From a virus (Duplodnaviria > Caudoviricetes): 64,000 nucleotides of DNA. Below the pieces are notes generated by a model. The model saw only the letters and a program-made list of their open reading frames with translations, was not told where the DNA came from and did no database searches. Of this stretch, positions 2,372 through 22,339 are shown piece after piece (the first letter of the stretch is position 1; every line of letters starts with the position of its first letter). The DNA lies in IMG/VR virus record IMGVR_UViG_3300028886_000037, positions 128,001 through 192,000 of that record, one strand, 5' to 3'. The translations under genes and the position numbers were made by a program.

Positions 2372-2464
2372 AGGCCACCTTCAATGGCCGTATAGGTTAT
2401 TTATACACAAAAGGTAAGGGAGAGATAGAGCATCTCTCCCAAATGGTTGAAGGCCATCTGTCCC
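2372..2464 (-). promoter_or_regulatory. structured endonuclease leader copy 1 (kissing loops, embedded late promoter)
   Basis: GGGACA-hairpin(loop CCTTCAA)-hairpin-CTTAC-TATAAATA-hairpin(loop TTGAAGG). Confidence 0.7.
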
Positions 2465-2472
2465 GTTTTTAT

Positions 2473-3570
2473 TTATAAGACCTTGTCGATCATTGGGATC
2501 ACCATCCCATGTTTGCTTATGACAGCCATCTTACCGATCTCGATGCCAAGATCCTTCATCTTAGCCATGTTGGAGAGCGAGACACGAGAGACGGTAGTGC
2601 CTTCGAGCTGGACCGGATTGATGATAGCGACTGGAGAGAGGGTAGAGCCAGCCATTTCCCAAGAGATGTCGATGATTTCAGAGACGGCAGTTTCGAGTTC
2701 CGGCTTGAGAGCCACGTCGCGCTTAGGAGTCTTGAGCTGGCGGTCTTCGCGGTCGATATCGTCTGCCTTGATGACGACGCCGTCGCAGTTGAACTTGATT
2801 TCTCCGTTAGCGATGCGTTCACGAAGATGTTCACGAATGTAGTCTGCAGAAGAGATGAGTTCCTTTGCTTCGACGGTGCAGTGCGGAGTGATCTCGAAGA
2901 AGCAGCTGTTAGAGAGCCAGTCCATGAGTTCGGTCTGAGTCTCGAATTCCTTTCCCATCACGTCGTAGCAGATCGCGTGGACGTATTGCAGATCGTTCTT
3001 GTCTTCAGTAGAGAGTGTTTCGAACTTGCGGTTGATGATGCCAGCGACAGCGTTGCGCGCGTTAGCGTTCTTGTGAGCGAAGCGAGCCTTGAACTCTTCG
3101 TTATAGATGACCATTTCGGCGCGAATGGAGCCAGTGAAGGACTGATCGATGGACTTCGGAAAGTTCATGAGGTTGAGAGTAGCAGTGCGATCGAGGCCAG
3201 TAGCGCCATCTCCTCGAGTGATAGCCTTGACGAACTTGCCATCGGCGTACTGGAGTTCCATGCTGGAGCCGTCGATCTTTAGTTCGAGGCTGTAGCGCTT
3301 TGCAGTCTTCTTCTTAGCAGCCCAGTCCTTGAGCTCGTCGATGTTTGCGCATTTAGCGAGGGTTCCAGTGGTCATGGTGTGATTGATCTTCTTTTCGTCG
3401 CAGTTGGAGTCGGCAGCAGCCATGCCGTTTGCGCAGAGAGGATCTGTCGGATCGATCTCTTTCAGACGGTTGATCAGAGCGTCATATTCAGAGTCGGTCA
3501 TGATTTCCTGACCGTTATAGTAAGCTTCGGCAGCCTTGAGGAGGAGTTCGCGGATCTGGTTCTTGTCCAT
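2473..3570 (-). CDS. ligA: NAD-dependent DNA ligase, N-terminal part (Ia, adenylation, OB domains)
   Basis: AYYNG..MTDSEYD, ELKIDG (KxDG), TRGDG, NARNAVAG, DGVVIK, VIP; stops after the OB fold. Confidence 0.93.
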   Translation of the reverse strand: MDKNQIRELLLKAAEAYYNGQEIMTDSEYDALINRLKEIDPTDPLCANGMAAADSNCDEKKINHTMTTGTLAKCANIDELKDWAAKKKTAKRYSLELKIDGSSMELQYADGKFVKAITRGDGATGLDRTATLNLMNFPKSIDQSFTGSIRAEMVIYNEEFKARFAHKNANARNAVAGIINRKFETLSTEDKNDLQYVHAICYDVMGKEFETQTELMDWLSNSCFFEITPHCTVEAKELISSADYIREHLRERIANGEIKFNCDGVVIKADDIDREDRQLKTPKRDVALKPELETAVSEIIDISWEMAGSTLSPVAIINPVQLEGTTVSRVSLSNMAKMKDLGIEIGKMAVISKHGMVIPMIDKVL

Positions 3571-3603
3571 GAGTTAGGTCCTTTTGTTGAGTTTTACATC
3601 TAT

Positions 3604-3635
3604 AATATATGTATTTTTAAGAGAAATCTAAACCC
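3604..3635 (-). promoter_or_regulatory. early sigma70-like promoter (representative of a repeated family)
   Basis: GGGTTTAGA-N17-TATATT; similar copies near 6498, 7757, 11180, 13148, 13905, 20824, 24100, 25960, 27501, 32322, 37153, 39225, 40275, 42802, 45237. Confidence 0.8.
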
Positions 3636-3651
3636 TCAAATTGAGATATCT

Positions 3652-4071
3652 TCATTCTCGTGATGCGCAGAGTCTTGTCGTGAGTAGGCTCGTTCCATAG
3701 CTTCTTTCCCATGTAGTGATGAACATCTCGAGCGCATCTTGCTCGTAATTTCCATTGCCGTCTGACTTTACGCCCACTGGGCTGTTCTGCTCAGTGAAGA
3801 AGCCTTTGACTGCTTGTCGGATCATATCTTCGTTCCAGAACAGACGACAGCACCCGAGGATGAAGTTGACTCGCTGATAGTATGGCTGTCCCGCCATCTC
3901 GAAGTTCTCAGCGTCGTCGATCTGGTTCTGCAGCTCGAATCCGCTGTTGTCTTCCAAGATCAAGTCTGCGATGTCGAACATAACTGGATCGATCTTATTC
4001 CAGTCGATGTCGCAACGGTCTAGAACGGCCTCATCGGTAGGAGTCACTAAAACGTCTAGGATCGATACCAT
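3652..4071 (-). CDS. hypothetical protein
   Basis: ORF abutting the upstream gene. Confidence 0.6.
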   Translation of the reverse strand: MVSILDVLVTPTDEAVLDRCDIDWNKIDPVMFDIADLILEDNSGFELQNQIDDAENFEMAGQPYYQRVNFILGCCRLFWNEDMIRQAVKGFFTEQNSPVGVKSDGNGNYEQDALEMFITTWERSYGTSLLTTRLCASRE

Positions 4072-4275
4072 TTAGCTCTCTACTAGGCAGTGCAATCCAC
4101 AGTGACATAGGCCAGGCTCTTTAGCCTTGATCTGGTCTCTGAATTGCTTACACATGCACTTGGTGTCTTTCGTCTTCATCAGGGCGCACGGACAGTAGCC
4201 GTCGTTGTCCTTGATCTTCTGCTCGAACGCTTTGACTTGCTCTTCGGTCCATTCGGGATTCTTGATAACTTTCAT
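4072..4275 (-). CDS. ferredoxin-thioredoxin reductase catalytic (beta) domain-like protein
   Basis: GYCPC..CMC..CHCGL cysteine pattern. Confidence 0.8.
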   Translation of the reverse strand: MKVIKNPEWTEEQVKAFEQKIKDNDGYCPCALMKTKDTKCMCKQFRDQIKAKEPGLCHCGLHCLVES

Positions 4276-4304
4276 AATTTCCTCTTTTGAGAGTATTTAT
4301 CGGC

Positions 4305-4859
4305 TTATTCCCAAAATATAGTCACAATTCCGTCGTTCGTCATTATTCTTGTAGTCATCTTCGTCATCCAGCGACCATTGCCGTAGCATACATCTGCGAT
4401 AGGGTACTCGTTCTTCAGCTCATATCCCTTGAACTCGACTGGATATTCCTGTTGAGTCTTCGGCATGTTGATGCGTCTGATGCGGTAAGAGCGCAACAGC
4501 TTGAGCTCTTCTGTGGTGAGATTGTAGAGATTCTCTATCCACCGTAACGCCGAGATCAGCGCGTCAACAGTGCCGATGTGATTCTCTATCACTTTCAGCA
4601 CCTCTTCGCTAGCTTGCTCTGACAATCCAGTAGCTACCTTGACGTGCTTTACTCTCCATCCTGGCTCTTCTGTGTACTTCATGATCGCAGCAGCGTAGAG
4701 CATAGCAGTCACGTCTCTGACGTCTCGACTCGGCAAGAACAGTCTGCGCTTCAACAGCAGCTCACCTAGGATCTGAGTCACCAGGTCTCTGTCGCCTATC
4801 GTGTTGATGACGTGAATCTCTAGCGGATCATATACTCCTTCGTCATTTGCCAAAATCAT
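4305..4859 (-). CDS. hypothetical, tandem paralog family (TAxL..; C-terminal W)
   Basis: TAMLYAAAIM; ends VTIFWE. Confidence 0.65.
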   Translation of the reverse strand: MILANDEGVYDPLEIHVINTIGDRDLVTQILGELLLKRRLFLPSRDVRDVTAMLYAAAIMKYTEEPGWRVKHVKVATGLSEQASEEVLKVIENHIGTVDALISALRWIENLYNLTTEELKLLRSYRIRRINMPKTQQEYPVEFKGYELKNEYPIADVCYGNGRWMTKMTTRIMTNDGIVTIFWE

Positions 4860-5511
4860 AGTTCTTCCATCTTATGTGTATGATCGCGTGAGGACCAGTT
4901 CCATACATAGTCTGTGCCCTGCAGCCATTGTCGTACCACTGTTCTCCGTTGTGGTTATAGTTAAGACACTTGATCTCGTAAGACTTGTAGAGCTTCTTTT
5001 CGAGGAAGTTGAGATCCCAGTGCTCGAAGTTTCCGAACTCTCTGACGGCAGATCGAAAGAAGTTCAACGGATAGTAGAGCTCACGATAAGTCCGTAGGAT
5101 GTTGTCTATGTCGGCGTCCGAGAATTGCTTTAAACGATCCGCTGCTGACTCGATGTGACCAGTCCATGCGAAGTCACGCACTGACCGTTCTGACAGCTCT
5201 AGAATGTATGCTAGAATCTCTCTAGTGTAGTGTCTGCGCTCGTATGAATCAAGCGTGTTCTCCATGAATGCGAAAGCCGTCAGGATGGCAGTTCTTCTCT
5301 GCAAGATCTGTTTCTCTGTTCTCGTGCGCTCGTACCATCCCTGGTCGTTGAACAGCTTGTCGAGATCTCGCTTGAGTAGAATGCTGCACATCAGAAACAA
5401 CCCATCAACTCCGATAGATTGATGGAGGTCGCACTGCAGCTCAGGAAATTCTCTAAATACGTGTTCTACCATACGACACTGATTCCTCTTCCGTAATAAG
5501 GAACGAAGCAC
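4843..5511 (-). CDS. hypothetical, tandem paralog family
   Basis: RRTAILTAFAFM; IHIRW; start may be the internal ATG. Confidence 0.65.
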   Translation of the reverse strand: MLRSLLRKRNQCRMVEHVFREFPELQCDLHQSIGVDGLFLMCSILLKRDLDKLFNDQGWYERTRTEKQILQRRTAILTAFAFMENTLDSYERRHYTREILAYILELSERSVRDFAWTGHIESAADRLKQFSDADIDNILRTYRELYYPLNFFRSAVREFGNFEHWDLNFLEKKLYKSYEIKCLNYNHNGEQWYDNGCRAQTMYGTGPHAIIHIRWKNYDFGK

Positions 5512-5978
5512 TTGTTGACGTTGTGAGTTCTGACTGCGGAACGCATCATAGTTACTCTGATTGACTTCTGGCCCTCTACTGACTGGACAGCGAGGTTCTT
5601 CCAGTCGACATTAGCGTTGAGATACTCATTTGCTCGCTTGACATGTTCTCTCGCTTCTGGAGTAGAGATGATCGCGTCAAGAAAGAGATTCATGCGCTCT
5701 CTGTCGGAGAAGTAGCCTCGGCAAGCGGAACCGAGCAGCCTCTCGATCAGCCAACGCTTGTCGAAGATCTGCTCACGCACAAGGGCGATTCCGATTAGCG
5801 TAGCCGTCCGGAACTTGCGTATCGAGATCTGATCAGTTTTTTCGAAAGTGTCTAAGTCTCTTTCGAAGCCGTCAAGATCCAATACGACAGTCTTTAGAAA
5901 ATAGCGGTAGAATCCAGCTAGATTCTCCCGCCATAGTCTTACTTCAAATTTTCGTTCTGGCAGTTCCATTAGTTCCAT
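5466..5978 (-). CDS. hypothetical, tandem paralog family
   Basis: RTATLIGIALV; ISVVW; start moved to MELMEL. Confidence 0.6.
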   Translation of the reverse strand: MELMELPERKFEVRLWRENLAGFYRYFLKTVVLDLDGFERDLDTFEKTDQISIRKFRTATLIGIALVREQIFDKRWLIERLLGSACRGYFSDRERMNLFLDAIISTPEAREHVKRANEYLNANVDWKNLAVQSVEGQKSIRVTMMRSAVRTHNVNKCFVPYYGRGISVVW

Positions 5979-5991
5979 TAGGCTATCTTCG

Positions 5992-6453
5992 TTAGTCCCA
6001 GATGATCTTGAACGGAACTTCAGTCTTCGGCTTGTGTTCGATGAAGCCGAGACGGACTTCATACTTACGAGCGGTCTTCATCTGGTCTTCGCCGACAGCA
6101 GTGTTAGTGAGCTTCTGAACCACTTCGCGCATGATCTTCTGGCCCTTAGCGTCCATCTTCATGTACGCGATGAAGTCCTTGACAGACTCTTCGTTCACTT
6201 CGTCGATGCGAGAAGTGTCGCAGAGATGTTCGATAGCGTGTCCCACAGCGTCAACGCCGATTTCCTGATCGATCAGGCAGAGTGCAGCGAGCAGAGCAGT
6301 GCGACGACGGCGCTTCTTTGCGGAAGTTGCGCGATCGTAGCCGTTCAGGCACTGAGCGAGCTTCTTGAGATTCGGGTTGAGGAGGAGGGAGGTTGCGCGT
6401 TCTGCATCATGGTCATCGATGTAGTCGTAGAGTTCGAGTGTGTTCTTTGCCAT
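5992..6453 (-). CDS. hypothetical, tandem paralog family
   Basis: RRTALLAALCLI; KIIWD; follows early promoter and AAGGA RBS. Confidence 0.7.
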   Translation of the reverse strand: MAKNTLELYDYIDDHDAERATSLLLNPNLKKLAQCLNGYDRATSAKKRRRRTALLAALCLIDQEIGVDAVGHAIEHLCDTSRIDEVNEESVKDFIAYMKMDAKGQKIMREVVQKLTNTAVGEDQMKTARKYEVRLGFIEHKPKTEVPFKIIWD

Positions 6454-6545
6454 TTTTGAGTCCTTTGTTGGCAGGTTGAACGAAAGTTTGTATTGTCAAT
6501 ATAGGTATTTCAAGAGAATTCGTAAACCCTATTTTAGAAAAATCT

Positions 6546-7203
6546 CTAAAAATTCCACCTCTTTGCTTGCTCTTTGTCCATTTCGATCAATGTCTTAGCG
6601 AGACGAACGTGGTCCTGCTTCAAGTTCTGTATCAGTTCCATCGTAGCCTCTCCAGTGATCTCGAGGTCCAGTTCGACGATCGCGTCTGTTAGAGTAGATT
6701 TGAAGTACTTGAACGATGGCGCCTCACGCTTGTAGCTGTTGTACATAGATAGCGGACCATAGGAGGTCTTGCGGTCGATCTCTTTCAGGCACCGGTCCAG
6801 CAGCTCTTCGTCGCCGAGTCCAGACGGCGTAGAAGTCTTGAACAAGAGCGACCAGAGCATGTCCACGTTGTTCATAGCACGCTTACGGATTCCGGGATTC
6901 TCGTTGTCGTCGTCGAACATGTAGATCGAATCTAGGTAGGACTGCGTAGAGCCCAGAATGTCGCTATAGAGGATGAACTTGATCTCCTTTGCGACTTTCC
7001 ATTCCTCTGGTGGCATATTGATGTAGTCAGCCTTTACGCGCAAAAGAAGCGATGTCTCTTTCTTCTCCGCTTCGAGCTCGAGAGAAGTTCCGTCACCATA
7101 CTCGACGTCAAGGAACGGGAACGTAGTCTCTAGCGAACGCTTGTATCGTGCCCGTCTCACATCAAGCATTCTCTTGAACTTGTCGATCGATACGCTGAAC
7201 ATT
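6546..7203 (-). CDS. hypothetical protein
   Basis: ORF; probable start MFSVSI coupled to upstream stop. Confidence 0.6.
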
Positions 7204-7756
7204 ATCGTCTCTCCAGTGACTTCTGAACTCTGTCTGCGATCTTGACTACGGCTTCTGGACTGAACTCGAGGATTCCGAACGGCGAGTTCTGCGGTGGAAT
7301 TCCTAGGCCAGCTCCCCACTTGAGAATCTCTGATACCGTCGAGTCGTCTAGTTTAACTACTGGATTGTAGTGTTTCTGGTGCCAGTACGTATCAGGTGAT
7401 ATGTGCATAGGATAGAGCTCGTTCAGATCTCTGGGATGTGTTCTACGGATCTCTTCGAAAAAGCTCTTAGCGCCAGTGCTCCACGGCTCTTTGATCCATC
7501 TGATGCGATACATCACGGACAGTCTTGACGACTTGACTTTGATTACAGATTGAAGGCTACGTGTCAGTCGGTATGTCTCTACGCTGTCTGGAAGAGTGAA
7601 GTCTGCCTTGAATGTGCCGTCATCGTCTTCAACCCGGAATTTCATTCTCGGATCGATCTGATTCAATTCGTGCACAATACGCGAGTACAGAAGCTTTACC
7701 GTTCTGCTTCCTTTCTCTTCATCAATTGTCATGTCGAAGTTGGTCATACATGTCAA
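7202..7756 (-). CDS. hypothetical protein
   Basis: ORF downstream of an early promoter. Confidence 0.6.
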   Translation of the reverse strand: MTCMTNFDMTIDEEKGSRTVKLLYSRIVHELNQIDPRMKFRVEDDDGTFKADFTLPDSVETYRLTRSLQSVIKVKSSRLSVMYRIRWIKEPWSTGAKSFFEEIRRTHPRDLNELYPMHISPDTYWHQKHYNPVVKLDDSTVSEILKWGAGLGIPPQNSPFGILEFSPEAVVKIADRVQKSLERR

Positions 7757-7858
7757 ATATAAGCAAAATGGCTCAGTTTGTAAACCCTATACAAACAGGA
7801 GACGGACAAAATCCGTCTCCAGGAACTCTTCCTACGCTAGCAGGTGAGCTATTTAGTC

Positions 7859-8524
7859 TTAGATGTGCCTAAGACAGTTACTGTCGAGATCGGCTACGAT
7901 TCGTTCATAGCTGACACCGCGATCGAGCTTACTTTGGATCATCTCGCGATTATTGTCGATCAGACAGTCGACTTCGTCCCAGTCGAATCCGCCTTCGTCG
8001 TGCAGATAGTTCTCGAACTCGTCAATTGGATCCATCAGCGGACCTACTGCTTCTCGAATGAGAGCAAATCCCTCGTTCTTGAGGAGCTTCTTAGCAGCTC
8101 TCAGCTTCTTGAGATTCTCTTCAGTGTCCTTGTCGTCTTTCTCTTTCGACGGAACTGCTTTAGCCTTCGGATTGTACAGAGGCTTAGGCAGACAGCCCTT
8201 GCCAGGACCGCCGTGAGGAATTCCCTGATTGAGTCCAGTAGGACCGCTTACGCCCATCGAGAAGTCCTCTTCGACCACGTTGCTTAGTTCACGAACGAAG
8301 TCGATGATGCAGTCAAGCTCTTCTCTAGAGGCGTCAGTAGCTACAGCTACGTACTTGCCTGCGCAGACAGTTCCGTTGACGTAGCCGTCAAGGTCGGAAA
8401 GTTCTCCCTTTCCCCAAATTGCCTTCGATAGCTCATTGCTGACGCGTGAAGCCGTTGTCGAGTTTCCGAACTCGAACAAGAGGCTCATGTACTTTTCATC
8501 GACTACGATATTTTCCCATTCCAT
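7859..8524 (-). CDS. hypothetical late protein, candidate internal head protein
   Basis: AAKKLLKNEG..LIREA motif; TATAAATA at 8844-8851. Confidence 0.55.
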   Translation of the reverse strand: MEWENIVVDEKYMSLLFEFGNSTTASRVSNELSKAIWGKGELSDLDGYVNGTVCAGKYVAVATDASREELDCIIDFVRELSNVVEEDFSMGVSGPTGLNQGIPHGGPGKGCLPKPLYNPKAKAVPSKEKDDKDTEENLKKLRAAKKLLKNEGFALIREAVGPLMDPIDEFENYLHDEGGFDWDEVDCLIDNNREMIQSKLDRGVSYERIVADLDSNCLRHI

Positions 8525-8527
8525 ATT

Positions 8528-8839
8528 TTACTCCTTGATGAGTTTCATACCCACAGAATTTAGAATTTTCTCTGCTTCTTGTAAACCCCTGTTTCTGAAG
8601 CACCAAGACTTTAGCCAGTCTGTGCAAGCGTCGAGCGCCTGCAGATTGTTGTCGAAAGCGAAAGTGAACGCGTTGCCGATACACCAGCATCCCATGAAGA
8701 ACTCACGATACTTGGACAGCTCGCCATTAAGGGCTTTAGAGAATTCGACTCTAACCTTGATGGCAGACTTTTGGCTGTTCATCTTGAATAGTGCGGAACA
8801 CTCGTCATCATCTACATCAATGTCTAAAAGTCTAATCAT
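8528..8839 (-). CDS. hypothetical protein
   Basis: ORF directly after a late promoter. Confidence 0.6.
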   Translation of the reverse strand: MIRLLDIDVDDDECSALFKMNSQKSAIKVRVEFSKALNGELSKYREFFMGCWCIGNAFTFAFDNNLQALDACTDWLKSWCFRNRGLQEAEKILNSVGMKLIKE

Positions 8840-8854
8840 ACATTATTTATATGA

Positions 8855-10283: not shown

Positions 10284-11147
10284 TCACTTGATCATAGAGA
10301 GGAAGTCTTCCGGGCTGATGATCTCGATTCCAAGAGACTTAGCCTTGACAGACTTAGACGAGGTAGAAGACGGATCTTCTTGGACGAGGAAGGAGAGACC
10401 CTTCTTGACGGAAGAGATGGTGCCGCCGTTAGCGATGACGAGTTCTTCGCACTTAGAGCGAGAGCCGATAGCTTCGGCCTTGCCAGTGAAGCAGAAGCTC
10501 TTTCCAGTGAGCTTGCCGTCCTTGACTTCGACCTTCTTTGCAGCTTCCAGCTTGACGAGGCCAGTCTTGATAGCGTTGACCATGTCTTCGCGCTTGAGGC
10601 AGAATTCGAAAGCGAACTTAGCGATCACGTCTTCGCTGACCATAGATGCGGGATGGTGCTTCTTGAGATCCTGAGCAGTTACGCCTGTCAGGACAGCTTC
10701 AGGATCTTCGTAGACGCCCTTGAACGGTGCCAGCTGATCGAGATCGAGGAACTTCTTTTCGCCGAAGCCGCGAAGATCGAACAGAGAGACGAACTTAGCG
10801 AGAGTCATCGGCTTAGCGAGAGCCTTGTGGAGATTCATGTGGATCTTGTAGCCGTTCTTGCTCATGATCACGTTGTAGAAGTCGGTGTTGCTCATCTGTA
10901 GGACTTCCGTGATGGTCTTCTTCTCAGCAGCGAGGTTCTCGATGAAGCCTTCGCCAGCGCCTTCGACTTCGAGCTTCGTGAAGAACTCGGCGAACATGTG
11001 CTTGACTTTGTTCTTGCAGCTCATGTTCTGGCACTCGACGAAGCCAGATTCTGTGATAGTGAGGTCTCCGCCGCAGCACGGGCAAGAGGTCGGAAGGTTG
11101 AGGTTCTTGGTGATGTAGTTGGCGAAGATCGGATGGCAGTTGATCAT
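10284..11147 (-). CDS. ligA: NAD-dependent DNA ligase, C-terminal part (Zn finger, HhH, BRCT)
   Basis: PTSCPCCG..CQNMSC; VEGAGE; LRGFGEK; LTGKSFCFTG..SKSVKAKSLGIEIISPEDF; start set at the ATG after the AAGGA RBS. Confidence 0.88.
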   Translation of the reverse strand: MINCHPIFANYITKNLNLPTSCPCCGGDLTITESGFVECQNMSCKNKVKHMFAEFFTKLEVEGAGEGFIENLAAEKKTITEVLQMSNTDFYNVIMSKNGYKIHMNLHKALAKPMTLAKFVSLFDLRGFGEKKFLDLDQLAPFKGVYEDPEAVLTGVTAQDLKKHHPASMVSEDVIAKFAFEFCLKREDMVNAIKTGLVKLEAAKKVEVKDGKLTGKSFCFTGKAEAIGSRSKCEELVIANGGTISSVKKGLSFLVQEDPSSTSSKSVKAKSLGIEIISPEDFLSMIK

Positions 11148-11257
11148 GTTGACGGTCCTTGTTTTAAGTTTGTATAACAAATATAAGAAAATCAGGGCTT
11201 TTCGTAAACCCTGATTTTTGAGATTTTCTTGATTTTTCTGAGCTTATCTACGCTTTC

Positions 11258-15146: not shown

Positions 15147-15151
15147 GATGT

Positions 15152-15238: not shown

Positions 15239-15242
15239 TTAG

Positions 15243-15316
15243 TAGCTCTGTCGGGACTTGAACCCGAATTTCTAGCTTGAGAGGCTAACGAACTAAACCA
15301 GTTATTCGACGGAGCC
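15243..15316 (-). tRNA. tRNA-Glu(CTC)
   Basis: TTAGC-CT CTC AA-GCTAG. Confidence 0.9.
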
Positions 15317-15321
15317 AAAGA

Positions 15322-15440
15322 CGAGATTCACTTTAGCGGGACTCGAACCCGTAACCTCTTCACTATTTCAGTGAAGTGCTCTACCAATTGAGCTATTTTC
15401 CCAACGGCGGAAAAAACCAGAGTTTGCTGTTGGAATCTCT
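15322..15440 (-). ncRNA. ACAGCA-scaffold RNA E3 carrying an acceptor-less tRNA body
   Basis: GAGATTC/GAATCTC + ACAGCAA; D arm, CTTCACT-GAAAT-AGTGAAG arm and T arm, no acceptor stem. Confidence 0.75.
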
Positions 15441-15442
15441 AG

Positions 15443-15514
15443 AGCACCTAGCGAGGATCGAACTCGCGACTACAGTTTGGAAGACTATCATGTTAGCCAC
15501 TACACCATAGACGC
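15443..15514 (-). tRNA. tRNA-Gly(TCC)
   Basis: CT TCC AA loop, U73. Confidence 0.9.
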
Positions 15515-15520
15515 GGATGT

Positions 15521-16210
15521 TTAATTTATAGAGGAGAGGGTGGGATTCGAACCCACGGAGGTTTCCTCCTCATATAATTTAGTAAAATCATTTCCATACT
15601 TATTTTCGACGTATTCTAAGTATGGCTTAATCTCTCTTTTCGTAATAATCGAAAGCTCTTTAGGAAATTGGTCATATTTTGCTTGCCACTGCTTAGACCA
15701 ATATCCCTTCAATTCAACATATTTTCCATCGACTATGAAGTCTGGAAGATAGTTATATTCTTTGCCTTCGAATATGTACTTAAACTTTTCTTTGTTCCTT
15801 TCGAATTTTATTCCGTGTTCAAGATTATATATCACGTATGCTAGTTCCCAAGAGCTGTCGCAGAAATATCCTTTATACCAACCCTTCTTTCCACGACCAG
15901 ATCCTTTACGATAGCCACCTAATGTGTGCCTAATCTTATTAGTCTCTTTTATCTTTTGTCGTGTTTCTTCCGTTTGGGCATGTTTCTTATATTCGACCCT
16001 TTCTGGATTCTTATAACATCTTTTTTCATGGAATCTCAGTGTATGCTTATATTCAAAATAGTTTCCGCAAAATTTACAATTTCCACCTTTATTAAATAGG
16101 AATTTCTTATGCTCTTTTTTATGATTTTCAGACTTATGTTTCTGAAGATCTCTTCTACTAGTACCGACATATTCACAGAATGAACATGGCCAAGTGTATG
16201 ATAATCTCAT
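15521..16210 (-). CDS. Zn-finger + PD-(D/E)XK homing endonuclease
   Basis: C2H2 fingers; DSSWE..YLPDF..VELKGY; AT-rich; reads into the tRNA fragment. Confidence 0.85.
   Translation of the reverse strand: MRLSYTWPCSFCEYVGTSRRDLQKHKSENHKKEHKKFLFNKGGNCKFCGNYFEYKHTLRFHEKRCYKNPERVEYKKHAQTEETRQKIKETNKIRHTLGGYRKGSGRGKKGWYKGYFCDSSWELAYVIYNLEHGIKFERNKEKFKYIFEGKEYNYLPDFIVDGKYVELKGYWSKQWQAKYDQFPKELSIITKREIKPYLEYVENKYGNDFTKLYEEETSVGSNPTLSSIN
15532..15571 (-). pseudogene. 3' fragment of disrupted tRNA-Ser
   Basis: variable arm, T arm and CCTCTCC, complementary to GGAGAGG at 16391-16397. Confidence 0.8.
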
Positions 16211-16230
16211 ATTACTCTCTCAAAGAAGTA

Positions 16231-16318
16231 AAGCGGGTGTCCGATTCGAACGGACGAGAGGTTTTAACCTCTGCTTGGGTTCAGGCCAAGTGCGATAAAC
16301 CAACTCCGCCAACCCGCC
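16231..16318 (-). tRNA. tRNA-Ser(TGA), nested inside the insertion
   Basis: CTTGG-CC TGA AC-CCAAG, long variable arm. Confidence 0.85.
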
Positions 16319-16354
16319 ATAAATTATTTATACAATCAAGACTAGTGCTTTTTG

Positions 16355-16397
16355 CCAGTTTCAAATCCGGATCCATAAACCACTCGGACACCTCTCC
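16355..16397 (-). pseudogene. 5' fragment of disrupted tRNA-Ser(TGA)
   Basis: GGAGAGG-TG-TCCGAGTGGTTTATGGA-TCCGGA TT TGA AA CTGG, then unrelated sequence. Confidence 0.8.
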
Positions 16398-16404
16398 AAA
16401 GTAG

Positions 16405-16492
16405 AGGCGGGTGCAGGATTCGAACCTGCGGCTCCTTTATGGGGAGCAACTCGTTAGCACCGAGCCGGTTTAGACCACTCACCCAACCCGCC
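16405..16492 (-). tRNA. tRNA-Ser(GCT)
   Basis: GCTCG-GT GCT AA-CGAGT, long variable arm. Confidence 0.9.
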
Positions 16493-16495
16493 ATA

Positions 16496-16569
16496 TCCAC
16501 CCGCTAGGACTTGAACCTAGAACCTCGGGGTTATGAGTCCCTTGCACCAACCAATTGTGCTACAGATGG
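16496..16569 (-). tRNA. tRNA-Met or Ile2 (CAT)
   Basis: CT CAT AA loop. Confidence 0.8.
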
Positions 16570-16574
16570 GAATC

Positions 16575-16707
16575 AAGATGTCATCTGTGCTCCCGGGGCT
16601 GGACTCGAACCAGCAGCCTTCTGGCGTCTTACTGAGGAAGGTCCTCTGCGACAGCCGTTCTAACCAGTTGAACGTACCCTGGAAAATAGAATTGCGGTTG
16701 ACATCTT
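16575..16707 (-). ncRNA. scaffold RNA E4 (ACCGCAA variant) carrying an Asn-like tRNA with an expanded anticodon arm
   Basis: AAGATGTCA/TGACATCTT stem; D and T arms intact, anticodon arm enlarged by about 20 nt. Confidence 0.7.
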
Positions 16708-16714
16708 TTATTAG

Positions 16715-16761
16715 AGCTACCAGCAGGACTCGAACCTGCGAAGGGATGAACCCAGCAGATT
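16715..16761 (-). pseudogene. orphan 3' tRNA half (U73, long variable arm; Cys-like)
   Basis: AATCTGC-variable arm-GCAGG TTCGAGT CCTGC-TGGTAGC-T, starting at the endonuclease stop. Confidence 0.75.
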
Positions 16762-17374
16762 ATAACAATTTACTGAGGATTCCCTCTATATAGGTTCGTT
16801 TAGCCTCTTTAGGAAGACGTTGGTATTCGGACCAATTACAGCGTCCTAATAGCGTCCATCCTTGCTCCTTTAAATTCTCTGTTCTTTCTTCATCATGTAA
16901 TTTTCCTTTTGATGTGTAATGCGTCTTGCCATCAACTTCAAAATAAAGCTTTTTATCAGGCCATGCAAAATCTAACCAATAGGGTTTTACATAATAGTTA
17001 TTTTCAAATTTTACGTTCTCATTTGTAAAAATGTTAAACCAACTTTGCTCAGCATAACTTCGTTTTCGTCTTCCTATCCATGAACTTGCGCGTCCTTCTC
17101 TATGTGCTTTTTTCATTCCGAGAGAAATTCTTTTGCATATAGCTTCGGTGTTTTTATGTCCTTTACATCGCAGCTTATTTGGATTCTTCTCGCAATGCAT
17201 TTCATGTCTAGTCATTTCACCACGAGTAATATGCTTGATTTTACCGCAGTATTTACATTTTAAATCATATTTAGGTGCTTGGCCATTTTTAATCTTATGT
17301 TCTTCGCTTTTATGCTTATAGAGCTTTCTACGTGATTCGATTTCAGCACCGCAATGTTCGCATACCCAAATCAT
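16760..17374 (-). CDS. Zn-finger + DUF559/Vsr-like homing endonuclease
   Basis: YWLDFAWP..FEVDGKTH. Confidence 0.85.
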   Translation of the reverse strand: MIWVCEHCGAEIESRRKLYKHKSEEHKIKNGQAPKYDLKCKYCGKIKHITRGEMTRHEMHCEKNPNKLRCKGHKNTEAICKRISLGMKKAHREGRASSWIGRRKRSYAEQSWFNIFTNENVKFENNYYVKPYWLDFAWPDKKLYFEVDGKTHYTSKGKLHDEERTENLKEQGWTLLGRCNWSEYQRLPKEAKRTYIEGILSKLL

Positions 17375-17396
17375 TTTTATTTCTCCATTTTAGCTT

Positions 17397-17478
17397 TATA
17401 GTCGTTCCAGCGACCATATTATTTATAGCAGTTAGAAGAACTGGAGATGTTCCTCAGCTGGCTGGAACCAGTTGTCCC
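17397..17478 (-). promoter_or_regulatory. structured endonuclease leader copy 2
   Basis: GGGACA-hairpin(TTCCAG)-CTGA-hairpin-CTAAC-TATAAATA-hairpin(CTGGAA). Confidence 0.7.
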
Positions 17479-17487
17479 ACTATAGTA

Positions 17488-17575
17488 AGCGCTCAGTTGG
17501 ATTTGAACCAACGTGGAGATTTCTCTCAGCGGCTTTGCAGGCCGTGGTCTTCGACCAGGCTCGACCCATGAGCGC
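17488..17575 (-). tRNA. tRNA-Cys(GCA) with long variable arm
   Basis: CGGC-CT GCA AA-GCCG, U73. Confidence 0.85.
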
Positions 17576-17586
17576 ATATTGTTTAG

Positions 17587-17660
17587 TACTCCGTCCAAGA
17601 TTCGAACTTGGATCAAGGGCTTCGTAGGCCCGTATGCTGAGTCCATTACACCAACGGAGC
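17587..17660 (-). tRNA. tRNA-Arg(ACG)
   Basis: CT ACG AA loop. Confidence 0.9.
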
Positions 17661-17665
17661 ATAGT

Positions 17666-17781
17666 CAAGATAACGTCTTTTGAGCTGAGTCCTGAGCCAC
17701 TAGACGACACCGGTATACGCCGATGACTGGATTCGAACCAGTGTTGCAGCTTTGGGATAGTGAAGATGCTGTTGTTATCTT
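17666..17781 (-). ncRNA. ACAGCA-scaffold RNA E5 carrying a circularly permuted tRNA (CCC, Gly-like)
   Basis: AAGATAAC/GTTATCTT; TCCCAA-AGCTG, T arm, acceptor closed by loop, D arm, CAGCT. Confidence 0.8.
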
Positions 17782-17785
17782 ATAG

Positions 17786-17868
17786 TCCTCCAGGAGGGAC
17801 TTGAACCCTCACGCCATTTCTGGCACCAGTTCCTAAGACTGGCGTGTCTGCGATTCCACCACCAGAGG
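17786..17868 (-). tRNA. tRNA-Leu(TAG)
   Basis: CCAGT-CT TAG GA-ACTGG. Confidence 0.9.
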
Positions 17869-17872
17869 ATAG

Positions 17873-17945
17873 TGCCACCCCTCCGTAACGATCGGAGATC
17901 CTCGGATTTTCAGTCCGTTGCATAGACCATCTTTGCTAGAGTGGC
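17873..17945 (-). tRNA. tRNA-Phe(GAA)
   Basis: CT GAA AA loop; atypical T loop ATCGTTA. Confidence 0.8.
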
Positions 17946-17950
17946 ATAAT

Positions 17951-18008
17951 CGAGATTCTTTTGTTTCTTAACCAAAAAGAAGATTTTAGAGTTGCTGTAA
18001 GAACCTCT
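17951..18008 (-). ncRNA. minimal ACAGCA-scaffold RNA E6
   Basis: GAGGTTCTT/AAGAATCTC + ACAGCAA. Confidence 0.65.
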
Positions 18009-18011
18009 TAG

Positions 18012-18085
18012 TCGGCAACCTTGGACTTGAACCAAGAACCTCTGCCTTATCAGAGCAGTGCTCTAACCAATTGAGCTAGATGCCG
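18012..18085 (-). tRNA. tRNA-Ile(GAT)
   Basis: CT GAT AA loop. Confidence 0.9.
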
Positions 18086-18096
18086 ATAAAAAATTT

Positions 18097-18165
18097 CAAG
18101 ATCCATTTTTCTAACGTAGTCTGATTACCAATCGGATGTTATAAGAATTTTGCAGTTAGGATCTT
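18097..18165 (-). ncRNA. scaffold RNA E7 (ACTGCAA variant)
   Basis: AAGATCC/GGATCTT stem. Confidence 0.6.
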
Positions 18166-18171
18166 TAGTAG

Positions 18172-18200
18172 TCTCCGATCAGGGATTCGAACCCCGGACC
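18172..18200 (-). pseudogene. 3' fragment of disrupted tRNA (Val-like)
   Basis: T arm + ATCGGAG-A, pairing with CTCCGGT at 18963-18969. Confidence 0.8.
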
Positions 18201-18211
18201 TGAAACTTTTA

Positions 18212-18285
18212 TCTTCGACCTAGGACTTGAACCTAGAACATCCGTCTTGTAAGGGCGGCGCTCTAACCAATTGAGCTAGCCGAAG
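18212..18285 (-). tRNA. tRNA-Val(TAC), nested inside the insertion
   Basis: CCGCC-CT TAC AA-GACGG; overlaps the endonuclease stop. Confidence 0.9.
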
Positions 18286-18919
18286 TTACGAACGATTTAA
18301 TTGATGAAATTGCCTCTGAAGTATTTCTCATTATGTACTTCCAAGTCAATCTCAGACATTTCCAACCGTTCTCTTTGCAATAAGTGTCTTTTTCGACATC
18401 CATTGCTTTTCTGCTGGGCCATTCATGTTGAGATCCATCAATTTCCAGATAGATCTTTAATTCTGGCCAAGCAAAATCCATGAACCATTTGCCAAAATGA
18501 TATTCTTCAACAAATGGAAAATTAGAAAGCTCCGTTTCGAGTAACCTCTTTGTCCATTCTTCAGCATAAGATCTTTTACATTTACTTCTCGACGACCACC
18601 AGATTCCGCCATTTTCTTTTATCTGTTTCTTACGAATTTCAGATAGCTTCTTCTTTGTGGCTTCAGTATGTTTAGATCCCAAGCGTAAGGCATTTTCGCC
18701 TGAATACCTTTTGCTAAAAGTTTCACTTGCTTGTTTTACTCTCGGATCATTATCCTTAGTTAGTCCTTTGTTCCAAGAAGGATGAGATTTAGAAAAGCCG
18801 TGTTCATCTTTGTGATGTTTCTGGAGTTCTCGTCTCGTTCTACCAACGAACGGACAATACTTGCAGCACCAGTCACCAGATGCGTTTTTCTGTTTTCTCT
18901 CTTTCTCATATCTTCCCAT
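18263..18919 (-). CDS. Zn-finger + NUMOD3 + DUF559-like homing endonuclease
   Basis: SWNKGLTK; WFMDFAWP..LEIDGSQH. Confidence 0.85.
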   Translation of the reverse strand: MGRYEKERKQKNASGDWCCKYCPFVGRTRRELQKHHKDEHGFSKSHPSWNKGLTKDNDPRVKQASETFSKRYSGENALRLGSKHTEATKKKLSEIRKKQIKENGGIWWSSRSKCKRSYAEEWTKRLLETELSNFPFVEEYHFGKWFMDFAWPELKIYLEIDGSQHEWPSRKAMDVEKDTYCKENGWKCLRLTWKYIMRNTSEAISSIKSFVTSASSIG

Positions 18920-18933
18920 ATTTTATTTATAGG

Positions 18934-18969
18934 AAGGATGGCACTCTGAACCAGCTGAGTTAACCGGAG
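18934..18969 (-). pseudogene. 5' fragment of disrupted tRNA (Val-like)
   Basis: CTCCGGT-TA-D arm-CCATC-CTT, then TATAAATA. Confidence 0.8.
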
Positions 18970-18975
18970 AGATAG

Positions 18976-19049
18976 TGCCCCACCAAGGACTTGAACCTTG
19001 AACTCTCTGCTTAAGAGGCAGATACTCTAACCAATTGAGTTAGTGAGGC
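18976..19049 (-). tRNA. tRNA-Lys(CTT)
   Basis: TCTGC-CT CTT AA-GCAGA. Confidence 0.9.
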
Positions 19050-19055
19050 ATATAG

Positions 19056-19128
19056 TTCCGGTAGCAGGGATCGAACCTGCGACTTTCTCCGTATGAAGGA
19101 GATGCTCTACCAACTGAGCTATACCGGG
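19056..19128 (-). tRNA. tRNA-Met(CAT)
   Basis: TCTCC-TT CAT AC-GGAGA. Confidence 0.85.
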
Positions 19129-19198
19129 GGGAAATCCACTGGCAGTTTGTGAGATACTGCCTAAACTCCTGAGGGCTACCTCAGAAAGCTAAAAGATA

Positions 19199-19270
19199 CG
19201 AGATAGAGTGGCCTTGCGCCACGAAACCGCATGATGGAGCAGAGGGGTGAAACTTGCTGTGTCTATCTCA
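19199..19270 (-). ncRNA. ACAGCA-scaffold RNA E8
   Basis: GAGATAGA/TCTATCTC + ACAGCAA; GCAA tetraloop hairpin. Confidence 0.65.
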
Positions 19271-19277
19271 AATTTAG

Positions 19278-19351
19278 TAGCGCCATCGGGACTCGAACCC
19301 GAATTTCCGACTTGAAAGGCCGGTGAACTGAACCAGTTATTCGATGGCGCC
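19278..19351 (-). tRNA. tRNA-Glu(TTC)
   Basis: CT TTC AA loop. Confidence 0.9.
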
Positions 19352-19356
19352 AAAAG

Positions 19357-19465
19357 CGAGATACGTTCTTTGTGTATAGCCCATCTGACTTTCGTCAGAC
19401 TTGCAGCTTTTCAGCTTATGGATTCGAACCACTTACAGTAAGAAATCATTGCTGTTTGTATCTCT
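19357..19465 (-). ncRNA. ACAGCA-scaffold RNA E9 with a T arm and two GAAA hairpins
   Basis: GAGATAC/GTATCTC; GTGG-TTCGAAT-CCAT; AGCT-GAAA-AGCT; TCTGAC-GAAA-GTCAGA. Confidence 0.7.
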
Positions 19466-19595
19466 TTTTCAAATGTGTCAGATACGGCGGATTCGAACCG
19501 CGATCTCAGACGTTGCGACATCTGGGACTTTTTGCACCGTCTCCACGACGGGACCGAAGCTACCTGCTTGTCAGAAGAGATAGAGTTCGCAACCT

Positions 19596-20414
19596 CTAAA
19601 ACTTCCTATCGGTACATATCCTACGCTTAGTAGCGGGACCGGGACTAGAGTCCCGGTCAGAAATGCTAAAACTTTCTTGAATTTTGATAGTCTGTAATAA
19701 TCTGAAAATTTCGTTTTCTCTTTCAATTTTAGAAAGTTTTTGAAATTCAGACCATCTAATTCTTTTTAAGAGCATCCAACCGTTTTCTATTAAAAATTCC
19801 GTTCTGATCTTGTCGTGTTCGATACCTTCTTTAGTATAGTGCTGTTCTCCATCAACTTCAATGTATATTTTTGATTTAGTCCATGCAAAATCTAAAGTAT
19901 ATCGGCCAACTTGATGTTGAGTTTCGGCATCTGTAAATATAGTTTCAAAATACTCTTCAGCATAAGATTTTCTTTTGTTTAACCAATTACAGTGTGTACC
20001 GCTAAGATTTTTAATAGCTGCATCTGATAATTTCCTTTTAGTTTCATCCGAAGTTTTATGACCTTGCCAAATTTGCTTATTCGGATTTTCTTTACAAAAC
20101 TTTTCGTGTCTTGTTAAATCGCAAGCTCTTTTATAAATTAAACCACAGAATTGACAAGGTATGTTTAAATCTGGATGATAGCCATAGAATTTACCTTTGA
20201 TTTCGTTAATATGTCCTTCTTTGCGATGCTGTTGTAATCTACTTCGTGAATGAAAATCATTGCCACAAATTGAACATTTCCAAATTTTAGAATTCTTTTG
20301 TATTCCTCTATTCGGATTTTTAAGACACTGCTTAGAAATGTGTGTTCCTAATTGTGCCCCAGTAGTAAACTCCATGTTACAAAATTTACATATATGTTTT
20401 ATTTCCAATTCCAT
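19596..20414 (-). CDS. multi-Zn-finger + DUF559-like homing endonuclease
   Basis: three C2H2-like fingers; YTLDFAW..IEVDGEQH; start MELEIK after TATAAATA. Confidence 0.85.
   Translation of the reverse strand: MELEIKHICKFCNMEFTTGAQLGTHISKQCLKNPNRGIQKNSKIWKCSICGNDFHSRSRLQQHRKEGHINEIKGKFYGYHPDLNIPCQFCGLIYKRACDLTRHEKFCKENPNKQIWQGHKTSDETKRKLSDAAIKNLSGTHCNWLNKRKSYAEEYFETIFTDAETQHQVGRYTLDFAWTKSKIYIEVDGEQHYTKEGIEHDKIRTEFLIENGWMLLKRIRWSEFQKLSKIERENEIFRLLQTIKIQESFSISDRDSSPGPATKRRICTDRKF
19631..19657 (-). pseudogene. degenerate 3' fragment of initiator-type tRNA
   Basis: CCGGG..CCCGG-TCCCGCT-A, same 3' end as the intact fMet. Confidence 0.55.
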
Positions 20415-20453
20415 ATAGTATTTATAACATGAGCTAACCACTGCTCTAAATTA

Positions 20454-20537
20454 TAGCGGGAGCCAGAGTCGGACTGGCACAAGCATTATCTGTCCCTGGG
20501 TTATGAGCCCAGTATCTTACCATTAGACTATCCCGCG
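20454..20537 (-). tRNA. initiator tRNA-fMet(CAT) with enlarged variable region
   Basis: C1 mismatch; CTGGG-CT CAT AA-CCCAG. Confidence 0.8.
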
Positions 20538-20544
20538 ATAATAG

Positions 20545-20619
20545 TGGACCGTAAGGGAATCGAACCCTTGACATCCAGCTTGCAAAGCTGGCGCTCTACC
20601 AAAACTGAGCTAACAGCCC
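20545..20619 (-). tRNA. tRNA-Ala(TGC)
   Basis: G3.U70; TT TGC AA. Confidence 0.9.
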
Positions 20620-20623
20620 GAAA

Positions 20624-20677
20624 GAATCTGTGAATGGCTCTGACCTCGAAAGGTTCTCCGTACTTACATCACAGATT
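20624..20677 (-). ncRNA. GATGTAAGTA-type stem RNA, copy 2
   Basis: AATCTGTGA/TCACAGATT outer stem. Confidence 0.45.
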
Positions 20678-20681
20678 TTAG

Positions 20682-20754
20682 CTGTCCCACCTGGACTCGA
20701 ACCAGGGACGGGGTGATTAACAGTCACCTACTCTACCAACTGAGCTATGGGACA
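20682..20754 (-). tRNA. tRNA-Asn(GTT)
   Basis: GGTGA-CT GTT AA-TCACC, G73. Confidence 0.9.
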
Positions 20755-20771
20755 TTAAAGATAAAGCCGAA

Positions 20772-20812
20772 GATTTCAATATGCAGATCGGATTCTCGAT
20801 CCAGATCTTTTT
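20772..20812 (-). promoter_or_regulatory. boxB/boxA-like leader (also 24049-24087 and 26360-26395)
   Basis: AGATC..hairpin..GATCTGCATATTGA repeated three times ahead of tRNA runs. Confidence 0.6.
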
Positions 20813-20894
20813 TGTTTGATTCTAATATAGAAACTTCTTTCGGGTTTGTAAACCCTCTTTCTCAGAATTTTTTGAGAAAGTTGTTTATTTATAG

Positions 20895-20967
20895 CTCCCT
20901 GTGGACGACTTGAACGACCGACATCGAAATTACAAATTTCGCGTTCTACCAACTGAACTAACAGGGA
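20895..20967 (-). tRNA. tRNA-Thr(TGT)
   Basis: CGAAA-TT TGT AA-TTTCG. Confidence 0.85.
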
Positions 20968-21052
20968 ATAAGAGCGCTGAGGATATGAGTGAAAAGCTAT
21001 CTCGAGTTCACAGTTCATCGGATATCCTCTCTAAGCATCCTCATCTTCACGT

Positions 21053-21127
21053 GATCGACGAGTGGATTGGAACCACCGCACCAGGCCCCGAATGGGCCTG
21101 CGCTCTACCATGCTGAGCTACGAAGAT
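21053..21127 (-). pseudogene. aberrant tRNA-like element (Pro-like)
   Basis: D and T arms present; 7-bp anticodon stem with 5-nt loop; poor acceptor stem. Confidence 0.55.
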
Positions 21128-21156
21128 ACGTCCTTGAATTCAGACGCTTAGATTAG

Positions 21157-21240
21157 TGGGTAAGGTAGGATTCGAACCTACTAAGCCCGAAGGCAACGGC
21201 TTTACAGGCCGCCCCAACTCACCATCGTTGGCGCTTACCC
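21157..21240 (-). tRNA. tRNA-Tyr(GTA)
   Basis: GCGGC-CT GTA AA-GCCGT, long variable arm. Confidence 0.9.
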
Positions 21241-21528
21241 TTGTACGGCCGGTCATTTATAGTCTTGTGACCGAAGACTTTACCCAACTCACGCTTATGC
21301 CGTTATTTTTCGCGATAGAACCATCACATGTGATGGTAGAATCGAATTCAAGATTCCAGCGGCCTGGTCAGGATGCTTATGCCTATGCTCTCCCCTGACT
21401 CCTTCACAGCCTTCGTCCGCTTGTCTATACGGACTTCTGCTGATCAACCAGTAAGCGCCCTTCCATTGGATCCAATTGACGGCGAAGTAGCGCTCAATGT
21501 AGCGGCCTTTGCAAGGATGGCGACTCCA

Positions 21529-22230
21529 CTATTGCCAGAGTCTCTCCTTCAATTCATAGCGGGACCGATGGGATTCGAACCCACAGCCTCCAGCCTTATT
21601 TTCATAAAGCATTTCTATTCGTTCAGTCCCGTATTTTTTATAAACGTACTCTAAATACTTTTTCATCTCTCTTCTATATAGGACGATTAACGGATATTTG
21701 AAAGTTCTTAATTTTTCCTCCCATCTATTATTTCTACGTCCTTTTATTTCATAATATGTATCGCCTATTTTAAAATCAGGATAGTATTTATGGATTTCTC
21801 CATTGCTTACATATTCAAAGCCTATTTTATTTCTCTCAAATTCTATTCCGTGATCTAAATTATAAATTACGAAAGCTAATTCCCAACGTGAATTGCAATA
21901 AAAGCCTTTATACCATCCAGAATAAATAGTACCAGATTTTTCTCTATAACCACCGCATCCAGCAGCTTTAGAAGTCTCTCTTAACTTCTCTTTTAATTCG
22001 TCCGTCATTCTATGCTTTCTATAGCAATCTTTACAAAATCCGGTCGAATTACGATTATCTAAAGATTTTCCGCAGTCTTTACAAAATCTCTTTTCAGTTT
22101 TTGAAAATAGTTTTGATAGTCTTCTCTTTAGTTCTTCTGTTCTTATTCTGCTATTAGCGCATGCTCTTGAGCAGAATCTTCCGCTTCCAAAAGAGCCATC
22201 ATGCTCTTTTCCACATTTTTCGCAGATCAT
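21529..22230 (-). CDS. Zn-finger + PD-(D/E)XK homing endonuclease
   Basis: CEKCG..RFCSRAC; NSRWE..YYPDF..YEIKGR. Confidence 0.85.
   Translation of the reverse strand: MICEKCGKEHDGSFGSGRFCSRACANSRIRTEELKRRLSKLFSKTEKRFCKDCGKSLDNRNSTGFCKDCYRKHRMTDELKEKLRETSKAAGCGGYREKSGTIYSGWYKGFYCNSRWELAFVIYNLDHGIEFERNKIGFEYVSNGEIHKYYPDFKIGDTYYEIKGRRNNRWEEKLRTFKYPLIVLYRREMKKYLEYVYKKYGTERIEMLYENKAGGCGFESHRSRYELKERLWQ
21560..21595 (-). pseudogene. orphan 3' half of tRNA (Asp-like)
   Basis: GGCTGG-AGGCT-GTGGG TTCGAAT CCCAT-CGGTCCC-G73, inside the endonuclease 3' end. Confidence 0.75.
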
Positions 22231-22254
22231 ATAGCCTCTTTTAACTTTATTTTA

Positions 22255-22339
22255 ACGAGGATCCTTCCATATCCTCGTATTATTTATAGAGGTTAGATCG
22301 AATGGCGAATTCGATCAGGAGGTGGAAGCCTCTTGTCCC
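22255..22339 (-). promoter_or_regulatory. structured endonuclease leader copy 3
   Basis: GGGACA-hairpin(CTTCCA)-CTGA-hairpin-CTAAC-TATAAATA-hairpin(TGGAAG). Confidence 0.7.

Follow-up and report, generated by a model that had tools for sequence, protein, structure and literature searches.

How a phage can carry homing endonuclease genes and keep them silent until late in infection is the question raised by a 64,000-nucleotide stretch of viral DNA (hereafter the window; positions 128,001 to 192,000 of IMG/VR virus record IMGVR_UViG_3300028886_000037), in which three nuclease genes are each preceded by a leader of one RNA family. The source record is the 247,923-bp genome of a T4-like phage with 47% G+C, which encodes a Gp23-family capsid protein, and the three leaders lie on its minus strand, each 5' of a nuclease open reading frame (ORF). 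Homing endonucleases harm their own phage unless they are silent until late infection, and to our knowledge a simple hairpin over the ribosome-binding site is the sole silencing route described. The leader studied here is a probably cis-acting structure of about 105-120 nucleotides (nt) at the 5' side of the mRNA. Its helices, a kissing pair between two of its loops, and a contact of another loop with the initiation region of the nuclease gene are supported by covariation, and the late promoter box inside it keeps a constant position.

On the whole, the order of parts given by the first-pass annotation of the window, namely GGGACA, hairpin 1, hairpin 2, CT(A/T)AC, TATAAATA, hairpin 3 and ATG, is found at all three sites (2372-2464, 17397-17478 and 22255-22339; all leader coordinates refer to the minus strand). 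To this we add that the 5' limit of the element is 5-8 nt ahead of GGGACA and not at GGGACA itself, and that hairpin 3 is followed by an A-rich spacer, the Shine-Dalgarno (SD) sequence and AUG. The pattern GGGACA-N(45-75)-TATAAATA has four matches in the window against 0.00 in shuffled sequences, the fourth match being without such hairpins. A covariance-model search, which that annotation had proposed, was done with two models built in this analysis, R1 and R2. In the whole genome both match these three places and no others, with scores at sites 1 to 3 of 104.8, 100.3 and 55.1 bits for R1 and 66.3, 60.2 and 51.6 bits for R2. Outside this genome, viral and metagenome contigs yield about 40 distinct leaders when scanned first with the pattern and then with the models. 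A looser pattern scan returned at least 119 loci, nearly all of them chance matches, and R1 retained two of the 76 screened. Promoter-less look-alikes in GC-rich phages (L229, L231, L220 and L216) were dismissed, their R2 scores being no better than those of the search pattern alone. Locus L222, with 38.5 bits by R2, may be a genuine member without the T4-type box.

The relatives disclose a helix that had been missed in the first reading. The 4-8 nt before GGGACA, together with its first GG, pair with CC and the following residues just 5' of the promoter, and this closing helix, P0, has at least 4 base pairs (bp) in 31 of 32 leaders, the 32 being the strict-pattern set of distinct leaders from viral and metagenome contigs. 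The paired strands read, for example, AUAUAUGG/CCAUAUAU, AAAUCGG/CCGAUUU, and AUACAG/CUGUAU where AG:CU stands in place of GG:CC. At site 1 the 5' strand, AAAA-C-GG with one bulge (2463-2469, within the R2 match at 2407-2473), pairs with 2409-2414, and the stretch UUACCUUUU (2409-2417) comprises the J3 joiner and the 3' strand. At site 2, where P0 covaries in the relatives, UAUAGUGG (17477-17484, first GG of GGGACA included) pairs with CUGCUAUA (17424-17431), which overlaps the first 4 nt of the promoter. At site 3 AGAGG (22338-22342) pairs with CCUCU (22288-22292), for which the SD AGAGG is an alternative partner. Since P0 encloses hairpins 1 and 2, the three helices form a three-way junction in the 5' domain, and the joiners between them are conserved as GACAR, YU and UWA. 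All three sites have P0, hairpin 1 and hairpin 2 with these joiners (R2, 52-66 bits). For 16 aligned leaders, RNAalifold predicts P0 and hairpins 1, 2 and 3 unaided, and 13 of the 18 pairs are changed on both sides. Pairing is kept in 96.8% of cells, compared with 71.9% in shuffles and at most 49% in slid-partner controls, and for the junction alone in 38 leaders it is 89.8% against 62.7%.

Conservation of the joiners raises the possibility that the junction core binds a protein or a small ligand (a phage late factor, a translational repressor or a chaperone) which sets the docking of the loops, the leader thus being a sensor. The joiners and the adjacent G-C pairs are invariant or nearly so while all stems covary, and three loci, L170, L200 and L015, keep the junction without hairpin 3. 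However, such conservation is equally expected if the joiners merely fix the geometry that aims two loops at their targets; moreover, no riboswitch or protein-binding family of Rfam matches, and the internal promoter is retained in all members. We therefore regard a factor-bound junction as unlikely, though worth keeping in mind.

The loops of hairpins 1 and 3 are, as first described, exact complements at the three sites: CCUUCAA/UUGAAGG, UUCCAG/CUGGAA and CUUCCA/UGGAAG. Hairpin 1 is AUGG/CCUUCAA/CCAU at site 1 (2443-2457), CUGG/UUCCAG/CCAG at site 2 (17458-17471) and GAGG/CUUCCA/CCUC at site 3 (22319-22332). Its kissing partner, hairpin 3, is GGCCA/UUGAAGG/UGGCC at site 1 (2373-2389), GUCG/CUGGAA/CGAC at site 2 (17401-17414) and a 7-bp hairpin at site 3 (22256-22277), with an 8-nt loop, AUGGAAGG, that contains UGGAAG. 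Among the 32 strict-pattern leaders, 30 have a perfect 6-nt loop-1/loop-3 complement 8-13 nt past the promoter, for which the chance is below 1% per leader. These leaders use 14 six-nucleotide loop codes, which with two 7-nt codes gives at least 16. Cognate loops match over 6-7 nt, and non-cognate ones mostly over 2-3 nt with a maximum of 5. In the 16 aligned leaders all six pairs of the kissing helix covary and 97.9% of cells are paired; site 1, with its mis-registered 7-nt loops, and site 3, with its 8-nt loop, account for every unpaired cell. The compensatory changes claimed earlier are thus strong in the relatives but modest among the window's own three copies, because a UUCCA/UUCAA core is common to them. 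The stems of hairpins 1 and 3, on the other hand, have no mutual complementarity, so that the match is limited to the loops, and this shows loop-loop kissing and not a DNA inverted repeat. The pairs include six G-U and no genuine A-C (none outside one mis-aligned row), which fits a structure in RNA of this strand. We conclude that the kissing of loops 1 and 3 is real.

These observations bear as well on the idea of a DNA-level element, in which an inverted repeat around the promoter would be an operator, a homing or recombination site, or a cruciform. I-TevI is known to bind an operator at its own late promoter and to repress it (PMC2988022). Besides, two syntenic contigs of sister phages, L004 and L016, have flanks 86-89% identical and leaders 97% identical, but the similarity ends at the ATG and the ORFs behind are unrelated, so that the leader is a recombination boundary. 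Nevertheless, an inverted duplication would give complementary stems as well as loops, which is not what is found, the pairs are kept via G-U and never via A-C, the orientation to the gene is fixed, and one operator cannot serve at least five nuclease families. An inverted repeat in DNA was rejected on the grounds of the stems and of the G-U pairs, and an element acting on DNA at all is the least probable of the explanations we considered.

The kissing pair has a route to the control of translation because the loop of hairpin 2 contacts the SD or the start codon; this contact and the closing helix P0 are both additions to the earlier reading. Over the leaders, loop 2 finds in the initiation region a best match of 5.07 nt on average, against 3.71 ± 0.15 for permuted loops (none of 1000 as high). 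The loop and its target change together, as in UUCACU/AGUGAA of L209, AUAUCC/GGAUAU of L178, GAACCU/AGGUUC of L088 and UAUUCUC/GAGAAUA of L173, and in L184 and L008 a UAAUCA/UGAUUA pairing spans the AUG. Among them, L209 is a relative of site 3, with kissing code and ORF start identical to those of site 3. At site 2 hairpin 2 (17435-17455, 7 bp) carries the loop AUCUCCA, of which UCUCCA is complementary over 6 nt to the SD UGGAGA (17382-17387), with -8.3 kcal/mol. At site 3 the loop UCGCC of hairpin 2 (22296-22316, 8 bp) faces GGCUA, which lies with the SD AGAGG at 22232-22239, and a 97%-identical relative of this site in L008 has the loop UAGCC, a perfect complement of GGCUA at the SD. At site 1 hairpin 2 (2418-2440, 9 bp) has the loop GCUCU, and there is an additional nested helix of 9 bp, UUACCUUUU/AAAAGGUAA, an alternative fold that covers the SD region (2363-2371).

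Contacts of these kinds are also found in other arrangements. In a sister design (twice in L010, and in L021 and L227) loop 1 covers 6-8 nt of the SD/AUG and loop 2 kisses loop 3, and in L028, which has no hairpin 3, loop 2 covers the SD directly over 7 nt. As an alternative fold, the 3' strand of P0 could pair with the initiation region, with a mean of 5.2 against 4.8 nt and 33 of 1000 shuffles as high, which is marginal overall, and such pairing is clear in site 1, L004, L016 and L021. Comparing the two leaders L004:1978-2098 (-) and L016:176-296 (+), we observe only three differing positions; at two of them, A gives way to U in the loop of hairpin 2 and U to A in the conserved AAAGNUAAAA motif. 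These two changes jointly preserve a 5-bp pairing (UAACU/AGUUA and UAUCU/AGAUA), which hints at one more contact.

The late promoter lies between the kissing partners, just where the first-pass annotation had put it. A TATAAATA-like box is present between P0 or the junction and hairpin 3 in all members, and at sites 1, 2 and 3 it occupies 2398-2405, 17420-17427 (a T4-type late promoter box) and 22281-22288. The motif is over-represented 17-fold in the window (19 copies against 1.1 expected), and 50 of the 55 copies in the genome have a same-strand ORF at most 150 nt downstream. A scan for sigma-70 promoters and terminators gave nothing usable. Apart from the leaders, TATAAATA is followed by 4 nt and ATG at four genes (window 8844-8851, 18924-18931, 20419-20426 and 23216-23223, all on the minus strand), three of which are nuclease-like ORFs without the junction leader; a late start on or beside the AUG would there possibly give leaderless messages.

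From the position of the box and the pairings around it we infer that the box fires in the late phase and that the pairings hold translation down. The reading we favour, with moderate confidence, is a two-point RNA clamp: read-through transcripts would carry it and be kept from translation, and late transcripts would lack it. Long transcripts would arise by read-through from tRNA or ligase genes upstream, and in such RNA loop 1 would kiss loop 3 over 6-7 bp as an anchor, while loop 2 would pair over 4-7 bp with the SD or start-codon region as a mask. The junction would then clamp the initiation region at two points and hinder the binding of the ribosome. The kissing pair, whose strength as a plain duplex is about -6 to -8 kcal/mol, would form once hairpin 3 is made and keep the short anti-SD loop beside the SD to compete with the ribosome. 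Transcripts from the internal late promoter would, by analogy with T4, be without the junction and leave the site free, and this shorter late transcript is probably the only one from which the nuclease is translated. The promoter position thus fits the early/late switch of the I-TevI kind which had been proposed for this leader, the switching itself being deduced from the layout.

A classical nested hairpin over the SD was considered as a general mechanism and is ruled out at sites 2 and 3 by the predicted probability of the SD being unpaired, which is 0.85 in the long RNA and 0.87 in the late RNA at site 2, and 0.58 and 0.49 at site 3. Site 1 is the only one with nested masking (0.35 long, 0.88 late). 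With the SD thus left open by nested folding at the other two sites, any repression there must come from the loop contacts.

Several observations weigh against the clamp reading. The loop-2 contact is short (4-7 nt); at site 3 it spans five positions with one mismatch (UCGCC against GGCUA), and at site 1 the loop GCUCU(A) faces, over 5-6 nt, codons 4-5 rather than the SD. Site 1 has a second TATAAATA at 2470-2477 (-), 1 nt before P0 and overlapping the ligase stop codon; late RNA from this box could still have hairpins 1 and 2, though not P0, and the pure early/late reading is therefore blurred there. The strict conservation of the joiners seems to exceed what a passive clamp needs. Other nuclease genes of the same window are without this leader. 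Finally, in L170 the junction and the late box, without hairpin 3, stand before an ORF lacking a nuclease match (L170:1395-1486 (-)), and in L200 they stand directly 5' of a tRNA gene (L200:3293-3460 (+)); these two may be remnants after loss of the nuclease, or the module put to other uses.

The second late box of site 1 also bears on whether the leader acts in trans or at all times. The junction of the long RNA might serve as an address-coded, antisense-like RNA on late mRNAs with matching loop 3 and SD flank, or else the fold might lower translation or alter stability of all transcripts whatever the timing. Two independently re-codable contacts amount to about 11-13 nt of specificity, kissing loops are the usual opening step of antisense control, and at site 1 a late box is also ahead of the junction. 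The codes, however, are not orthogonal, as sites 2 and 3 share UUCCA/UGGAA with cross duplexes of -5.2 to -6.0 kcal/mol, and contig G003 (loci L025, L031, L033 and L035) has the code CUCUAA twice. This overlap within the genome and the repeated code of one relative favour action in cis; furthermore, the two partners are always in cis, flanking the promoter at a distance of about 60 nt from each other. A throttle in trans or irrespective of time is accordingly quite improbable, slightly more so than the factor-bound junction. It is likewise doubtful, to the same degree as the latter, that the junction is a programmable two-address RNA regulator, whose core binds a factor or which acts in trans on messages with matching loop-3 code and SD flank; were it so, the selfish nucleases of co-infecting phages could be silenced or released by code.

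The suggestion that the element might be a ribozyme or a processing element found no support. On that reading, a self-cleaving ribozyme or a nuclease processing site would cut the nuclease mRNA free of the tRNA or ligase transcript upstream of it. A compact pseudoknotted fold with conserved unpaired nucleotides would suit this, as would the start of sites 2 and 3 only 3-6 nt past a tRNA 3' end, and a Pistol ribozyme lies directly 5' of a weak look-alike in an unrelated contig. But no ribozyme model scores at the three sites with E up to 10 in 161-nt searches, the core is not hammerhead-like and lacks GAAA, and the look-alike in L231 has 23 bits with R2, about the level of the search pattern. 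Self-cleavage or processing is very unlikely on this evidence. More generally, a search of 30 kb against Rfam at E ≤ 1 gave no match, and in the 161-nt searches the best matches, none of them to a ribozyme, reach 12-23 bits where the gathering scores are 34-90. The Pistol ribozyme mentioned above (L231:7069-7118 (-), 55 bits, above its gathering score, with the look-alike immediately after) is a separate element; the Pistol consensus includes AUAAAUA, which is also the core of the T4 late box.

The genes behind the leaders support the earlier proposal of a portable module, for the leader is found before different nuclease families. At least five are represented, namely GIY-YIG, DUF559, phrog_655 HNH-type, classical HNH and DUF7487/endonuclease-I-like. 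In the window, all on the minus strand, site 1 precedes an HNH-type homing endonuclease of 236 amino acids (1649-2359; phrog_655, E 9e-33; phrog_12434 HNH), site 2 a DUF559 (Vsr-like) endonuclease of 204 (16760-17374; PF04480, 35.6 bits), and site 3 an endonuclease of 233 (21529-22230), assigned to the PD-(D/E)XK type because of a PDF...EIK motif. These had been called three unrelated families, and indeed site 1 is HNH-type and the nucleases of sites 2 and 3 have no pairwise similarity; however, as one is Vsr-like and the other PD-(D/E)XK, the latter two may share one superfamily. The site 3 nuclease is 38% identical to that of ORF 15521-16210, which is without a leader. Site 3 with its gene and tRNA-Asp is 97% identical to a segment of contig G009, the flanks being only 73-82% identical.

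As for the surroundings, sites 2 and 3 start a few bases (3-6 nt) past the 3' ends of tRNA-Cys and tRNA-Asp, within an array of 37 tRNAs. Within this array ARAGORN also reports one tRNA whose anticodon, UUA, is stop-reading, and one odd tRNA-like gene whose anticodon is unclear (window 25019-25091 (-) and 26098-26174 (-)). The site 1 leader comes after the stop codon that ends a fragment of ligase. Two pieces in reversed order, at 10284-11180 (-) and 2473-3570 (-), make up the NAD-dependent DNA ligase, and transcription reaches its C-terminal part (phrog_3869 positions 387-654) about 6.7 kb ahead of the adenylation and OB-fold part. A split of the ligase gene by the site 1 nuclease was rejected, since ORF 602-1603 is not ligase and the C-terminal part is at 10284-11180. 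The window contains in addition a transposase-like ORF (40700-42367 (-); phrog_506, E 1e-44), and a megablast of 4 kb against the phage collection gave no match.

Among known systems, the closest are the homing endonuclease genes of T-even phages (I-TevI, I-TevII, I-TevIII, segB and Aeh1 mobE), which have hairpins sequestering the ribosome-binding site and an embedded late or middle promoter (PMC2988022, PMC2330249). As in those cases, a selfish nuclease gene within an early/middle transcription unit bears the structure in its 5' leader, the upstream RNA would mask the ribosome-binding site, and the TATAAATA-type promoter is so placed that a late transcript would omit the masking arm; segB is further alike in its location in a tRNA cluster, as for sites 2 and 3. 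Unlike the single nested stem holding the SD/AUG in T-even phages, the present leader has a three-way junction, two loop contacts, a pseudoknotted kissing pair and conserved junction nucleotides. We thus suggest that the logic of I-TevI, segB and mobE is realised here by a different RNA architecture. Dassa et al. (2009, PMC2677866) also reported conserved hairpins with TATAAATA, located before Vsr-like and GIY-YIG endonuclease genes in the 'fractured genes' of marine metagenomes. They resemble our family in being a leader structure that encloses the late box and is common to free-standing nucleases of several families from uncultured T4-like phages; however, they are simple, with two motifs forming a stem, and no junction, kissing loops or variable codes were reported, the comparison being by description only. 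As regards kissing loops themselves, no report of kissing or loop-loop control of homing endonucleases was found in the literature searched, and the leader family is in neither Rfam nor that literature. CopA/CopT of plasmid R1 and hok/sok are cases of kissing-loop antisense control. There too a fast recognition of 6-7 nt between G-C-closed loops leads to a block of the ribosome-binding site, but it acts in trans between RNAs from opposite strands, whereas here there is one sense transcript and relief would come via the internal promoter.

Overall, the end that a simple hairpin over the ribosome-binding site attains is seemingly reached here by an RNA of modular build that has a conserved three-way junction and two loop contacts, each re-codable by itself, and is swapped as a cassette. 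If this is true, the leader would amount to a translational clamp of natural origin, both compact and programmable, and a clean model of how kissing loops may aid a short anti-SD loop in its race against the ribosome.

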